Origin: Candidatus Thalassarchaeaceae archaeon
Lineage (GTDB): Archaea > Thermoplasmatota > Poseidoniia > Poseidoniales > Thalassarchaeaceae
Reading direction: 5' to 3'
DNA length: 64,000 nucleotides
NCBI GenBank assembly: GCA_029250605.1
Contig: JAQXEZ010000006.1
Location: forward strand, 11,535 to 75,534
Below the pieces are notes generated by a model. It did no database searches. It was not told where the DNA came from and worked only from the letters and a program-made list of their open reading frames with translations. The translations under genes were made by a program, and so were the position numbers. Shown here piece by piece: positions 2,310-6,384 of the stretch. Position 1 is the stretch's first letter. Every line of letters starts with the position of its first letter.

Positions 2310-3269
2310 GTTCTGGCTCTGTCGTGAGGCATCTTCCGGGGGGACAGCAAACACCAATGCCACTCCTGACCCAATGATGAGCAGTCCGCCCATCCAGTCA
2401 GCAGGATCGAGAGTCTCCCCGAAAATTGCAAATCCGTAGAAAGTTGCTACTATTACAGTGAGGTAGGAGAAGGCGCTGACCCATGCAGCATTCGCCTTGT
2501 GGTATGCCATTGTGATTCCGATCTGACCTCCTCCTGCTCCGATCCCTACTCCAACCAGAGAAGCGATTGTTGCGGAATCTAGAGATGGGACATCGGGAGC
2601 GGCTTGGATGATGCTTCCACAGACAGAGAAGGCTGCGAACCAGAACACTACAGTAGCAGGCGAGTCAGTCTTCCTGAGTTCTCTGACGTACATGTATGCC
2701 AGAGCAGCGAAGAATCCGGATCCCAACGCCAAGAGCGCGTCTGGCTCGATGCTACCCAGTTCAGGTGAGATAATCAGGACGATTCCAACAAATGCAGTAA
2801 TGACGAGCATGGCAACGCCGGATGAGACGCGTTCTGCCAGAATCCTTCCCGAAAGCAGCGCTACGAAAAGCGGGCCTGTGTACTGGAGAGTGACGGCTTG
2901 GCCTATGGGGATCCTGCTGAGGGCGGTGAAGTAGAGAATCATCGCCAGAAGTCCTACGGAGCATCTGAGTAGCATTGTCTTCCTGTCATTGACCCTCAAG
3001 CTGATTCCCCGGGATGCCGCGAAAGCGGCCACTGCGAACGCAATCACCGCAGACCTGACCATGATGATCATCCACACATCAGCATGGTCGCTCGTCCATT
3101 TGACCAACGCATTCATTGTCCCAAAGCAGACGCTGCCGAAAATCATCCAGAGGACAGCGGCCTTCGGGGAGTCCGGCATCTCTTCCTCGGTTACGAATGA
3201 GGATAGGTCGGGACCTTCAGTACTGGAGTAGATTTCCCCCAAACCTCTTCCCAGCCCGCTTTTTGCCAT
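2292..3269 (-). CDS. EamA/DMT-family 10-TM transporter with a ParB-like N-terminal GLGRGL peptide
   Basis: Start taken at ATG 3269, 1 nt after the parA stop (3271-3273). The ORF-track start at 3347 would overlap parA by 77 nt. The N-terminus is MAKSGLGRGLGEIYSS, followed by an acidic linker. The rest is a typical duplicated EamA hydrophobic pattern (LQYTGPLFVALLSGRILAERVS..., GLLIIGSGVALVF). Confidence 0.75.
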   Translation of the reverse strand: MAKSGLGRGLGEIYSSTEGPDLSSFVTEEEMPDSPKAAVLWMIFGSVCFGTMNALVKWTSDHADVWMIIMVRSAVIAFAVAAFAASRGISLRVNDRKTMLLRCSVGLLAMILYFTALSRIPIGQAVTLQYTGPLFVALLSGRILAERVSSGVAMLVITAFVGIVLIISPELGSIEPDALLALGSGFFAALAYMYVRELRKTDSPATVVFWFAAFSVCGSIIQAAPDVPSLDSATIASLVGVGIGAGGGQIGITMAYHKANAAWVSAFSYLTVIVATFYGFAIFGETLDPADWMGGLLIIGSGVALVFAVPPEDASRQSQNSRDAS

Positions 3270-3270
3270 C

Positions 3271-4233
3271 TTAAGACAGACCCCAACGATGTTGCAATTC
3301 CGTGGTAATTGCCTGGTAGTCCTTGCCTCCGGCACTGGAGGGGTCATGGAGGTGAATTGGAACTCCGTGGCTTGGTGCCTCTGCCAATCTCACGTTCCTC
3401 CTAATAGCGGGCCTGACGACTAAGTCAGGGAAGTTTTCCAGGACCTCGCCTGCAACTTGTTTGTTCAGCAGTGTCTGCGAGTGCATGGTCAGTAGGACTC
3501 CATCCACCCCCAATCTATCGTTCAGCAGACTCCTGACTTCCCGAATTGTTCCAGCCAATAGGGCCAATCCCTCCAATGCGAAGTATTCGGTCTGAACCGG
3601 AACTAGTACCCCATCGGAGGCCACCAATGCGTTGATTGTCACTAGGCCCAGTGAAGGGGGGGTGTCAATCAGTACGAGGTCGTAGTGAGCAAGCAAGGGT
3701 TCGAGTGCCTCCTTCATCCTCTTCTCCCTCCCGAGTTGCCTCATCATCTCCTGTTCCAAACCAATCAAACTCTTGTCTCCGACTATGATGTGCAGATTAT
3801 CCACTGCTGTAGCGTGCCTGGAGTCGACTGCAGTCTCCGGGGTTAGAATCAGGTCTCGTGTGGTAGTCCTGACCCTACTCTTATCCACGCCTAGCCCGGT
3901 TGCGCAGTTTCCCTGGGAATCAGAGTCAATCACAAGGACCCGGAAACCCCTCAGTGCAAGTTGGGCTGCGATGTTGATGACTGTGGTAGTCTTACCAACT
4001 CCACCCTTTTGGTTGATTACGGTGACTACCCTTGCCCTACCTTCTGGAGTGGGCAATGAAAGCGGGAGCTCCATCGGGCTTCGTGACCTATTTGCCCTGA
4101 TCTCCTCCGCCGAATCGAGAGGTGGTGCAAGGTTTTCGTCTTCCTCCTCCAAGAATTCTACGTCGATTATCAATGGAGCATCACCTACTTCTGGCAGTTC
4201 TTCGTCGCCATCTGAGGAGTTCATCCGAGGCAA
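3271..4233 (-). CDS. parA: ParA/Soj-family partition ATPase with an acidic N-terminal extension of about 68 aa
   Basis: Deviant Walker A VINQKGGVGKTTT, Walker B-like LVLIDTPPSLG and a DSDSQGN motif. The acidic N-terminal region (DGDEELPEVGD...EEEDENL) is not typical of ParA. Confidence 0.9.
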   Translation of the reverse strand: MPRMNSSDGDEELPEVGDAPLIIDVEFLEEEDENLAPPLDSAEEIRANRSRSPMELPLSLPTPEGRARVVTVINQKGGVGKTTTVINIAAQLALRGFRVLVIDSDSQGNCATGLGVDKSRVRTTTRDLILTPETAVDSRHATAVDNLHIIVGDKSLIGLEQEMMRQLGREKRMKEALEPLLAHYDLVLIDTPPSLGLVTINALVASDGVLVPVQTEYFALEGLALLAGTIREVRSLLNDRLGVDGVLLTMHSQTLLNKQVAGEVLENFPDLVVRPAIRRNVRLAEAPSHGVPIHLHDPSSAGGKDYQAITTELQHRWGLS

Positions 4234-4293: not shown

Positions 4294-6384
4294 TTAGCCC
4301 GTGGAACGGTCGATGAGATACCATAGAACCATCTCACCGGTCTCGGCATCCATTGCCATGTCTAGTGACTTGTCTCTCCCGTCTTCTTCCCAATTCCTTG
4401 TTGTGGCCATTGTCACCTTGCCATCTCCCAGATCTCCAGGAAGGAAGCTAAGGATCTCATTGTCCTCTGTGACAGAAAGCCTGTAGCCAACCTCTGCTTC
4501 TGGGTTCCAGGAGCTCCCGGATTGAATGAATGGGGATAGGTCTGGGTATCGTTCGGGGCTTAGGATTCGTTGTTCCAACAGAGACAACGTCTGTGTGCTA
4601 GGGATTGAGTCGCGGTTCCATGAAACATCGCCCCTATTGTTTGAGCCAGAGGAGATGACATCGCAACCCTCTGGAGACTGACGTAGAACCAACCATCCTG
4701 AGGCATCGTCTTCATCCACCCATGACATATTCCACTCGCCTTCGCCGGTGGGTTTGGACCACGATGCCTTCCAGATGTATCCCCCAGAATCTAAGGCCTC
4801 GGTTGCTTGGTTGTTTGGATGACTTGATTTTAGACAGGTGACGGCCTCTTCGAGATCGAACTGCCTGATGTCGGACTCGTCCCACATGGAATCAACCCAG
4901 TTTCTCTTGGTTGAGGTCCCGGGCCTATCTTCTCCATCTGTGGGGCTTGTTGTGTAGTCACGGTTCCAGTCTATTGGTTTGCTTCCAGGTGAAGAATCAG
5001 TCCGAGAGAATGTTGTGGTGATGGAGAGCGTGCCTTGGGGTAGAATCTCGTCGGACAGCGAACTAACTAGGAAATCACAGTCCTTTGTCTGCAAGTCCTT
5101 GTCTAGGAGAATATCAGACATCTGCTTTACCGGCCAAGAGCTACCGCTCTGAACGTAGATCTGGATCGTTGCATGCCCGAAACATCTTCCGATTTCCTCG
5201 TGTTCGAGGAAAACCGGGTAGACGAGCCCGTGGATATCGTCTCTGAACTCCTTCTTGACCTCCCACTTCCAGTCTGAGTTCCAATTGATGTCGGGGTCCG
5301 ATGACCTCGCTCCCTCCTTGATAACAACGTCACCAAAGAAGCCGTGAAGCTCTATCGGGGTCATGGGGAACGATAGGATTGGGAGGAGTTCCGCCAACCC
5401 TCCGAGACCCCCTGCATCATAGGTTACGGCTCTGAGGTTGGTGGTCACGGAGTCAACGTCGCTGAAAGAGACTGATGTGTGGGTCCTCTTGACCTCTGTC
5501 TTCTCTATCTCCACCCAACTGGTTGAGTCTACCGACAGATCGTTACCCGACATTACCCATCTGATGTTTCCACAATCGGTTTCAGCATCGTCTCTCCAGG
5601 TCCTTCCCTCGAAGTCAACGTCAAGATCCATGCTAATCGTCTTCTCAACTGATAGGAAACCGGACCTCCCCAAGCTATCGGTGGTTTCTACGGCACCCGA
5701 TTCGGGGCCATCTGCTACCAGAACAGTCCCAGTTCCATCCATTTCCATTGAGAATTCTCCACAGGACGGATCTAGGATCCCACCAGCCGAGTCTCTAACT
5801 ATGCTGAGCATCTCCTCACCATTGATGCTGACGCTAGAATCGATTACCTGGAAGTCCATGTTCTCTCCGAATCTCAGTTTCGAGACTGTGAAACCGGAGC
5901 TCCTCTGGAGGAAAACTGTAGCAGCGGCGCCGACGAGGATTGTAACAAGTAGGACAGCAACGACCGCCTTCCATCGATCACCCAGAGAAGATAGGGTAGG
6001 CATTGAGATGACCAGTGATGGCTGATCGTCCTCACCAAGGATAACCGGTTCTAGGGTGGCGGGGGTTTTCTCTGGATCGGGAGAAACTACCTCGGCCTCT
6101 ACGATTTCGGCCTCTACGACCTCTCCTATCCTGGATAGGACCTCGTCCACCTTCTCTCGGGTATCGGGAGGATCGTCATCAACGACAAGAGCATCTTCTC
6201 CCCAAGATTCCTCTTCTGGAGCCTCGTTTGGGTCATCTAGGATTCCTGCATCCTCAAGAATCCTATCGACTAGTACGGACTTCTTTCCCGATACTAGGAG
6301 TCCTCTATCCTTGCAAATCTCCCTTAGCTTCGCTACTGTGTTTGAGGTAAGCGACTCTCGGTCAATTGAAACATCTTCGGTCAT
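4294..6384 (-). CDS. Single-pass membrane protein: N-terminal SAP DNA-binding motif, acidic linker, TM helix, extracytoplasmic domain of about 535 aa with unknown fold
   Basis: Residues 12-44 (LTSNTVAKLREICKDRGLLVSGKKSVLVDRILE, nt 6253-6351) match the SAP helix-extended loop-helix consensus. A TM helix KAVVAVLLVTILVGAAATVFL lies around residues 139-159. Nothing is recognisable in the remainder. Confidence 0.7.
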   Translation of the reverse strand: MTEDVSIDRESLTSNTVAKLREICKDRGLLVSGKKSVLVDRILEDAGILDDPNEAPEEESWGEDALVVDDDPPDTREKVDEVLSRIGEVVEAEIVEAEVVSPDPEKTPATLEPVILGEDDQPSLVISMPTLSSLGDRWKAVVAVLLVTILVGAAATVFLQRSSGFTVSKLRFGENMDFQVIDSSVSINGEEMLSIVRDSAGGILDPSCGEFSMEMDGTGTVLVADGPESGAVETTDSLGRSGFLSVEKTISMDLDVDFEGRTWRDDAETDCGNIRWVMSGNDLSVDSTSWVEIEKTEVKRTHTSVSFSDVDSVTTNLRAVTYDAGGLGGLAELLPILSFPMTPIELHGFFGDVVIKEGARSSDPDINWNSDWKWEVKKEFRDDIHGLVYPVFLEHEEIGRCFGHATIQIYVQSGSSWPVKQMSDILLDKDLQTKDCDFLVSSLSDEILPQGTLSITTTFSRTDSSPGSKPIDWNRDYTTSPTDGEDRPGTSTKRNWVDSMWDESDIRQFDLEEAVTCLKSSHPNNQATEALDSGGYIWKASWSKPTGEGEWNMSWVDEDDASGWLVLRQSPEGCDVISSGSNNRGDVSWNRDSIPSTQTLSLLEQRILSPERYPDLSPFIQSGSSWNPEAEVGYRLSVTEDNEILSFLPGDLGDGKVTMATTRNWEEDGRDKSLDMAMDAETGEMVLWYLIDRSTG

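Follow-up and report, generated by a model that had tools for sequence, protein, structure and literature searches.

ParA-type ATPases of archaea are known from the SegAB system of Sulfolobus and from the AspA-ParB-ParA system of pNOB8, in which they are accompanied by soluble DNA-binding partners (SegB, and ParB with AspA, respectively). More generally, ATPases of the ParA/MinD type position chromosomes, plasmids and protein machines, and a short N-terminal peptide of a partner protein is what they recognise. In the ParABS system, ATP-bound ParA dimers coat the nucleoid, and the ParB peptide at the dimer's edge, together with DNA, triggers hydrolysis and release; this tethers cargo bearing ParB peptides to the ParA carpet, along which the cargo is moved (PMC12462528). 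The ParA-binding motif of Myxococcus xanthus ParB comprises residues 11-19, of which four hydrophobic ones (L11, L15, L18, I19) and, at the centre, an Arg/Lys (R13) are all required for the recruitment of ParA; a ParB peptide of 20 residues is enough to stimulate the ParA ATPase when DNA is present, and ParB dimers offer two juxtaposed peptides for efficient activation (PMC12462528). Other ParA/MinD systems rely on N-terminal peptides of their own that are carried by unrelated partners, a kind of peptide that has been described as a potential "luggage tag" (Pulianmackal et al., bioRxiv 10.1101/2022.06.09.495121). Here we describe a locus in a 64,000-nucleotide stretch of DNA from a Candidatus Thalassarchaeaceae archaeon (contig JAQXEZ010000006.1 of assembly GCA_029250605.1; the whole stretch is referred to as the window), in which a peptide that matches the ParB motif forms the N-terminus of a DMT/EamA-family membrane protein encoded directly after a Soj-type parA gene.

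As in SegAB and the pNOB8 system, a ParA-type ATPase of an archaeon is here genetically linked to a partner, but the products of the linked genes are two membrane proteins, and a soluble centromere-binding protein was not seen in the locus. Chromosomal ParB/Spo0J proteins (M. xanthus residues 11-19, Thermus thermophilus Spo0J residues 1-20) and the DMT protein have in common a near-identical xGLGRGLxx-hydrophobic sequence at the extreme N-terminus, disorder with helix propensity in this region, and a gene placed directly after a Soj-type parA, the two being closely spaced or overlapping. Unlike in ParB/Spo0J, the motif of the DMT protein is followed by a 20-residue linker and a transporter with ten transmembrane (TM) helices, and the host is an archaeon. 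With partners of ParA/MinD ATPases such as McdB, PomX, MinE and those of the ParP/TlpT type, the protein shares a short basic and hydrophobic N-terminal peptide on an otherwise unrelated protein and a gene beside that of the ATPase. Its tail is a disordered N-terminal peptide in which a conserved basic residue is flanked by hydrophobic ones, and by analogy it is this class of partner proteins that the DMT protein appears to resemble most in function. The peptides of those partners are system-specific, however, and the partners themselves are soluble or peripheral, whereas the motif found here is the canonical chromosomal ParB one and its carrier is a polytopic integral membrane protein. What is new is thus a canonical ParB peptide on an archaeal polytopic transporter that lacks the ParB body, under selection in dozens of uncultured and globally abundant marine species. 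In the literature searched, we found no described case of a canonical ParB motif on a polytopic membrane transporter and no report of GLGRGL outside ParB.

A ParB-type peptide at the N-terminus of a DMT protein

The first 14 residues of the DMT protein (MAKSGLGRGLGEIY) match the chromosomal ParB motif L-G-R-G-L-x-x-hydrophobic, and the complete N-terminus reads MAKSGLGRGLGEIYSSTEGPDLSSFVTEEEMPDSPKAAV, after which TM1 begins. The spacing of L6, R8, L10, I13 and Y14 is identical to that of L11, R13, L15, L18 and I19 in M. xanthus ParB. For further comparison, ParBs were taken from the bacteria whose Soj is most similar to the ParA of this locus (44-49% identity), each ParB being encoded after its Soj gene. 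The tail plainly resembles the N-termini of all four, from Tsukamurella (MAGQKKGGLGRGLAALIP), Bacteroides (MATQRRNALGRGLDALLS, containing ..NALGRGLDALLS), Legionella (MTIKSRGLGRNLSVLL, containing ..RGLGRNLSVLL) and Priestia (MAKGLGKGINALF). The likeness to ParB N-termini that had been noticed in a first-pass annotation of this DNA is therefore confirmed. The annotation had also attributed to this segment a stimulation of the ParA ATPase through a basic residue; such stimulation is not now seen as the work of an arginine finger (PMC12462528).

No ParB body was detected when the window and the related loci fetched for comparison (0.86 Mb) were searched by tblastn with the four ParBs. At the start of the DMT gene, only ParB residues ~4-46 were placed, in matches that were each weak and that recurred in many loci, and the few other matches were equally weak and scattered. 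The DMT protein has no ParB/Srx domain (ParBc, PF02195), EamA being the only family found by Pfam, and it has neither a helix-turn-helix parS-binding domain nor a C-terminal dimerisation domain; residues 35-325 form the DMT fold with its ten TM helices. The protein is not a ParB, and by sequence and fold it is a DMT transporter. Searches of the PDB with the 39-aa tail (phmmer) and with a 19-sequence tail profile (hmmsearch) returned no ParB chains and gave chance matches only, for example to Lin1832 ('MRKASLGRGLEDIYQS'), either because the deposited ParB constructs lack the N-terminus or because the match is too short.

The EamA family is matched in two repeats (5.3e-27), and the AlphaFold2 (AF2) model, built from a 68-sequence alignment, has a mean predicted local distance difference test (pLDDT) score of 87.5 and contains ten TM helices. 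Foldseek matched this model to SLC35B1, YddG (5I20) and the triose-phosphate translocator (TPT) with a probability of 1.0 and TM-scores of 0.6-0.79. The two EamA repeats, the ten helices and the DMT fold are shared with the DMT/EamA transporters YddG, RhtA and the SLC35 family, and matches to NCBIfam models were far below the equivalog cut-offs. In the model, the pLDDT of residues 1-30 is <50, and a short helix is predicted at residues 10-16. As the first-pass annotation had it, the tail leads directly into TM1 of the EamA fold (helix 35-59). Its "acidic linker of about 30 aa" was roughly right for the tail as a whole, which has 34 residues, but only ~20 of these lie between the motif and TM1. 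The loops on the N-terminal side contain four Lys and Arg residues and those on the other side none, which indicates an N-terminus inside the cell and hence a cytoplasmic tail. This N-in topology agrees with that of YddG.

Start codon and the junction with parA

On the minus strand the junction reads ...CTG TCT TAA g ATG GCA AAA AGC GGG CTG GGA AGA GGT TTG GGG GAA ATC TAC..., so that the parA TAA (3273-3271) and the DMT ATG (3269) are separated by a single nucleotide, as originally annotated, and the DMT gene, like parB genes, is encoded directly downstream of parA. The proposal that translation truly begins at 3269 is borne out by comparison across species. In 50 species the motif is preceded, at a distance of exactly four codons, by a conserved start codon (ATG in 44, TTG in 4 and GTG in 2), and the longer frame is closed in relatives. 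In four of these (L001-L004; one relative is 81% identical) the DMT frame is interrupted immediately upstream by the parA stop codon (..HRWSL*LMAKGGLGRGL), and a longer open reading frame (ORF) is therefore not possible. The 351-aa ORF that begins at ATG 3347 was rejected as a listing artefact: this ATG is not conserved, and the parA stop closes the frame in relatives. Among 45 tail-bearing species, the distance from the parA stop to the DMT start ranges from -4 to +3 nt, a tight junction that probably reflects translational coupling.

In 16 species (L021, L022, L024, L025, L034 and others), the parA stop abuts the DMT start in the same frame (..GLA*MxxRGLGRGL, position 5000/5001), and read-through of the stop codon would there join ParA to its own tag, as we also call the peptide. 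Such a fusion is no general requirement, because the two frames in the window differ by +1. One tail-less clade (L005, L049, L053, L059) has the sequence RFGLGE[TA]LGSE in the DMT frame upstream of the ATG, overlapping the 3' end of parA; it contains no start codon and looks like a by-product of the conserved C-terminal ParA sequence LEKRWGLKR in a different reading frame.

Specificity of the motif and selection on the tail

The pattern [GAS]LG[RK]GL is expected 0.17 times in the six frames of the window and was observed once, in the DMT tail; for any one protein chosen beforehand, the chance of its falling within residues 1-10 is ~1e-5. Elsewhere in the fetched loci there was one occurrence, a chance match. 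Among 150 related DMT cluster representatives, the motif was carried by four, all of this orthologue group, and by none of the ~145 non-orthologous or partial ones. The similar frequency in DMT proteins without linkage to parA that the first-pass annotation had named as the sign of chance similarity was thus not seen. Among the DMT proteins sampled, the motif is exclusive to the parA-linked orthologue group and sets it apart from other DMT/EamA transporters. A non-orthologous DMT protein with 42% identity (L011) has neither a parA neighbour nor the peptide.

Across the 50 species, L6 (six Leu codons in use), G7 (four codons) and L10 (six codons) are invariant, and position 8 is Arg in 49, specified by five codons of both the AGR and CGN types; the exception is the decayed tail of L035 (GLGISL). 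Position 13 is always Ile, Val, Met or Leu, and residues 2-4 are free to vary. Because these four residues are maintained despite the use of four to six synonymous codons for each, the peptide is under purifying selection at the protein level. The most divergent orthologues found (51-65% identity) retain it (MVKKGLGRGLNSL, MAERGLGRGLGSM). The first-pass annotation had made its proposal depend on orthologues carrying the GLGRGL segment, and they do so down to 51% identity, but in ~40% of related species, which still have parA as the neighbouring gene, the whole tail has been secondarily lost; to that extent the refuting condition set in the annotation does apply. Variants of the motif in orthologues include LGRSL, LGRNL and LGRKL, and LGRNL occurs in bacterial ParBs too. 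All tail-bearing species have a second motif, with the consensus GP[DN]L[ST]x[FY][VIL] (residues 19-26), which is as conserved as the first one. This GPDLSSFV-type motif has no counterpart in ParB and is always lost jointly with the LGRGL motif.

The neighbouring ParA and its co-variation with the tail

The protein encoded upstream is matched by the Pfam families AAA_31 (2.7e-54), CbiA and ParA, with M. xanthus ParA (8RAY, 2.7e-58) and T. thermophilus Soj (1WCV) as its best PDB matches, and its identity to bacterial chromosomal Soj proteins is 44-49%. The deviant Walker A motif KGGVGKT with its signature Lys is kept, as are motif 2 (D-x-D...N) and Walker B, and K76, K81/T82, D103, D105, N109 and D190 are invariant in 75 species. 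R282 corresponds to R238 of M. xanthus ParA, a residue for non-specific DNA binding, and is Arg or Lys in all species. An acidic N-terminal extension of ~65 aa (4038-4233, minus strand) is not present in bacterial Soj; it holds a conserved IIDV[ED]F stretch that also occurs in the distant relative L010. An ATG is located three codons inside the TTG start at 4233.

The ParB-contact residues of M. xanthus ParA were mapped to the archaeal protein through the alignment with 8RAY. The pocket positions L150-G151-L152 are kept as L195-G196-L197, L155 as I200, L192 as L237, and E82/E117 as D127/E162. The position of L187 is occupied by E232 in the window ParA, as in T. thermophilus Soj.

In a neighbour-joining tree based on ParA and the DMT core, the peptide is present in the outgroup and in the basal clades, and the tail-less species fall into five separate groups (parsimony minimum, five changes). 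The simplest reading of this distribution is that the tag is ancestral and was lost at least five times, which provides a natural experiment on the co-evolution of ParA and its partner. In tail-less DMT proteins, 10-26 residues precede TM1 (as in MQEQLDAPDSPR). A tag moved to another gene was not found in the tail-less species, in which LG[RK]GL is absent in any frame within ~5 kb on either side, the N-terminus of the adjacent SAP-domain protein included.

The 255 columns of the ParA alignment were screened for positions that are invariant in all tail-bearing species and repeatedly changed in tail-less lineages. The top-ranking column was Leu197 (3643-3645, minus strand), the equivalent of M. 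xanthus L152, which is a proven essential ParB contact. All 46 tail-bearing species have Leu in this column, and the seven changes to Ile lie without exception on tail-less branches; this contact residue is constrained only in the presence of the tag. Columns 200 (the equivalent of L155) and 236 (next to that of L192) were also on the short list. Most other pocket residues are invariant in both groups alike and hence uninformative, and only 197, 200 and 236 fit the pattern. Tail-less branches make up 47% of the tree length, and the probability that all seven changes fall on them is ~0.005 in a single test and ~0.05 after correction for eleven pre-listed contact sites. We regard the co-variation of position 197 with the tail as a suggestive, not a decisive, link between the tag and ParA.

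Distribution and gene order

The DMT gene is 97% identical to that of the Marine Group II (MGII) euryarchaeote MED-G35, and all 80 of the 80 genome loci recovered belong to Poseidoniales, many of them labelled Thalassarchaeaceae/MGIIb. The surrounding genes are chromosomal. Wherever the contig continues upstream of the DMT gene, the gene immediately before it is parA, and all loci with enough flank show the order SAP-ParA-DMT, across 51-97% identity; where there is more flank, genes for RimK and a Xer recombinase are found beyond the SAP gene. The SAP protein is composed of an N-terminal SAP DNA-binding domain, an acidic linker, one TM helix and a large C-terminal domain. Its cytoplasmic linker contains a conserved short helix, [DE]x[VI]D[DEKR]xL[AS][RK][IVF] (REKVDEVLSRI in the window, DAIDRLLARV in other clades), which could be a site of contact with another protein. 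A search for a replication-origin gene near the locus found no Orc1/Cdc6 in the 8-30 kb neighbourhood, where housekeeping genes are located (cytochrome oxidase, RsmB, RibD). NCBIfam gave no informative name for the SAP protein, ParA or the DMT protein, and a literature search found no report on ParA in Poseidoniales/MGII or on SAP-ParA systems in archaea.

A candidate membrane-anchored ParA partner and its alternatives

On these sequence grounds, we lean towards the reading that in residues ~1-14 the DMT protein carries a functional copy of chromosomal ParB's ParA-interaction motif, and that the transporter is a membrane-anchored ParA partner or "tagged cargo". From the match we infer ParA binding and ATPase activation, a cellular outcome and a parB origin, which could be connected as follows. 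An acquired parAB operon would have lost the ParB body, leaving the first parB codons fused to the next gene; this origin is suggested by the position of the peptide, which is precisely the place next to a Soj-type parA at which a parB would start. On its disordered, cytoplasmic 34-residue tail, the motif would dock at the dimer interface of DNA-bound ParA-ATP, and the docked tail and DNA together would stimulate ATP hydrolysis. The outcome may be a transient tethering of the nucleoid to the membrane, or a ParA-dependent spreading and spacing of the DMT protein over the nucleoid. With -4 to +3 nt between the parA stop and the DMT start, the synthesis of the two proteins would be coupled. If the tail does bind ParA, it would be a natural case of the "luggage tag" principle that is of interest to synthetic biologists. 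To our knowledge, nothing is known about nucleoid organisation in MGII, and a membrane-anchored ParA partner, if confirmed, would offer a first handle on it.

Several observations weigh against this reading, beginning with the loss of the tag. Among 84 non-redundant loci, the peptide is present in 49, is decayed and without its Arg in two (GLGISL, GLGMGL), and is gone together with the whole tail in 33. In the tail-less species, all catalytic residues of ParA are intact and its identity to the outgroup is 76%, compared with 78% in the others. Because ParA does not decay where the tail is lost, it must have a function that is independent of the tag. The tag is thus an accessory and dispensable feature, which lowers its importance but not its reality. 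The ParB-peptide pocket of the archaeal ParA, as judged from the alignment, is only partly canonical: V116 is replaced by Gln161 and D110 by Ser155 (Ser, Thr or Asn across the archaeal ParAs). Tyr81 of M. xanthus ParA, which was reported to be invariant in 3800 bacterial ParAs and was proposed to stack on the Arg of the ParB motif, corresponds to Arg126 (3856-3858, minus strand) in 76 of 76 archaeal ParAs, whether the tag is present or not, and in this the archaeal system differs from those of ParB/Spo0J. On the side of the peptide, the fourth hydrophobic position (Y14) is Ala, Ser or Thr in many clades, and the DMT protein has a single tail where a ParB dimer has two peptides. The signal at ParA position 197 consists of one conservative substitution on a neighbour-joining tree, and columns with the converse pattern exist too.

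Some of these observations would be accommodated if the tail were conserved for a role that does not involve ParA, such as membrane insertion or sorting, the regulation of transport or contact with some other protein, and if its likeness to ParB were convergent or coincidental. The second conserved motif, GPDLSSFV, which has no ParB counterpart, the Arg of ParA at the place where a Tyr normally faces the motif Arg, and the fact that ParA is unaffected by tail loss would all fit such a role. A coincidence, however, would have had to put the motif among the first 10 residues of the protein (~1e-5) and at the very site where the first codons of parB would be; the motif is absent from all other sampled DMT proteins, and ParA L197 is constrained only where the tail exists. 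We consider a role apart from ParA unlikely. Less probable again, and in our view quite improbable, is that the peptide is an evolutionary relic, left by a parB that disappeared except for its first codons, which became part of the next gene and have persisted without function. Its position and sequence do fit a remnant of the parB 5' end, and the repeated loss of the tail came at no visible cost to ParA. A functionless 34-residue tail, though, would not keep two Leu and one Gly invariant and Arg in 49 of 50 species amid saturated synonymous change, with residues 2-4 varying, and it would not survive to 51% protein identity; moreover, the tail is removed whole rather than drifting, and a decaying state is seen in only 2 of the 84 loci. 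The last of these readings, which has next to no probability in our estimate, holds that the peptide is untranslated, its codons being a leader upstream of a real start at Met31, where the tail-less orthologues begin. This Met (3177-3179, minus strand), just before DSPR and TM1, is indeed kept in the clade of the window and is aligned with the starts of tail-less orthologues, but basal clades have no Met at position 31, and the conservation of in-frame residues combined with the turnover of synonymous codons from a conserved start is the signature of a translated sequence. It is conceivable that an internal start at Met31 yields an isoform of the DMT protein without the tag.

A more far-reaching proposal keeps the interaction with ParA and adds the SAP protein, which would bind the chromosome while the DMT tail engages ParA, the two forming a split, membrane-anchored substitute for ParB and part of a segregation or nucleoid-anchoring machine in place of ParB/parS. 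It accords with the SAP-ParA-DMT order in all loci with enough flank, with the DNA-binding fold of the SAP protein lying N-terminal to its TM helix, on the cytoplasmic side, with the absence of a ParB-domain gene from the window and from 0.86 Mb of related loci, and with the Xer recombinase gene close by. Against it, all loci come from one archaeal family, and the synteny may be inherited rather than functional; in addition, the tag was lost in ~40% of species in which SAP and ParA are still present. Such a machine seems to us improbable on present evidence. We are equally reserved about the broader idea that Thalassarchaeaceae (MGIIb) have no conventional ParB and divide its two jobs between the membrane proteins that flank parA, which is likewise not what we would expect to be the case. 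In this scheme, the SAP protein would keep the chromosome at the membrane, and the ParB-derived tail of the DMT protein would bind ParA and trigger it. Were the split arrangement real, ParA-driven positioning or segregation of the nucleoid in archaea would have a new architecture.

Coordinates of the locus and the adjacent gene

The features of the locus are collected in Table 1.

Table 1. Features of the SAP-ParA-DMT locus, in positions of the window
Feature	Position	Strand	Basis or remark
parA, Soj-type ParA ATPase, 320 aa	3271..4233	minus	TTG start 4233; TAA stop 3273-3271
Spacer, 1 nt (g), between parA stop and transporter start	3270..3270	minus	direct reading
DMT/EamA-family membrane protein with 10 TM helices, 325 aa	2292..3269	minus	Pfam EamA, AF2, Foldseek, start-codon conservation
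N-terminal tail, residues 1-34, predicted cytoplasmic and disordered	3168..3269	minus	AF2 pLDDT, loop Lys/Arg count
ParB-type ParA-interaction motif (putative), residues 5-14, G-L-G-R-G-L-G-E-I-Y	3228..3257	minus	spacing as in ParB
Second tail motif, residues 19-26, G-P-D-L-S-S-F-V	3192..3215	minus	conserved across tail-bearing species
TM1 of the DMT fold, residues 35-59	3093..3167	minus	AF2 helix 35-59, pLDDT >90
Upstream in-frame ATG of the 351-aa ORF, not the true start	3345..3347	minus	not conserved; 77-nt overlap with parA
SAP-domain membrane protein, 696 aa	4294..6384	minus	Pfam SAP 4e-10, residues 12-44

On the other side of the DMT gene, a gene on the plus strand (1302-2309) runs towards it, and the last 18 nt at the DMT 3' end are shared by the two. 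The product of this plus-strand gene looks secreted and has GPxG repeats like those of collagen (Pfam Collagen, 4e-11).

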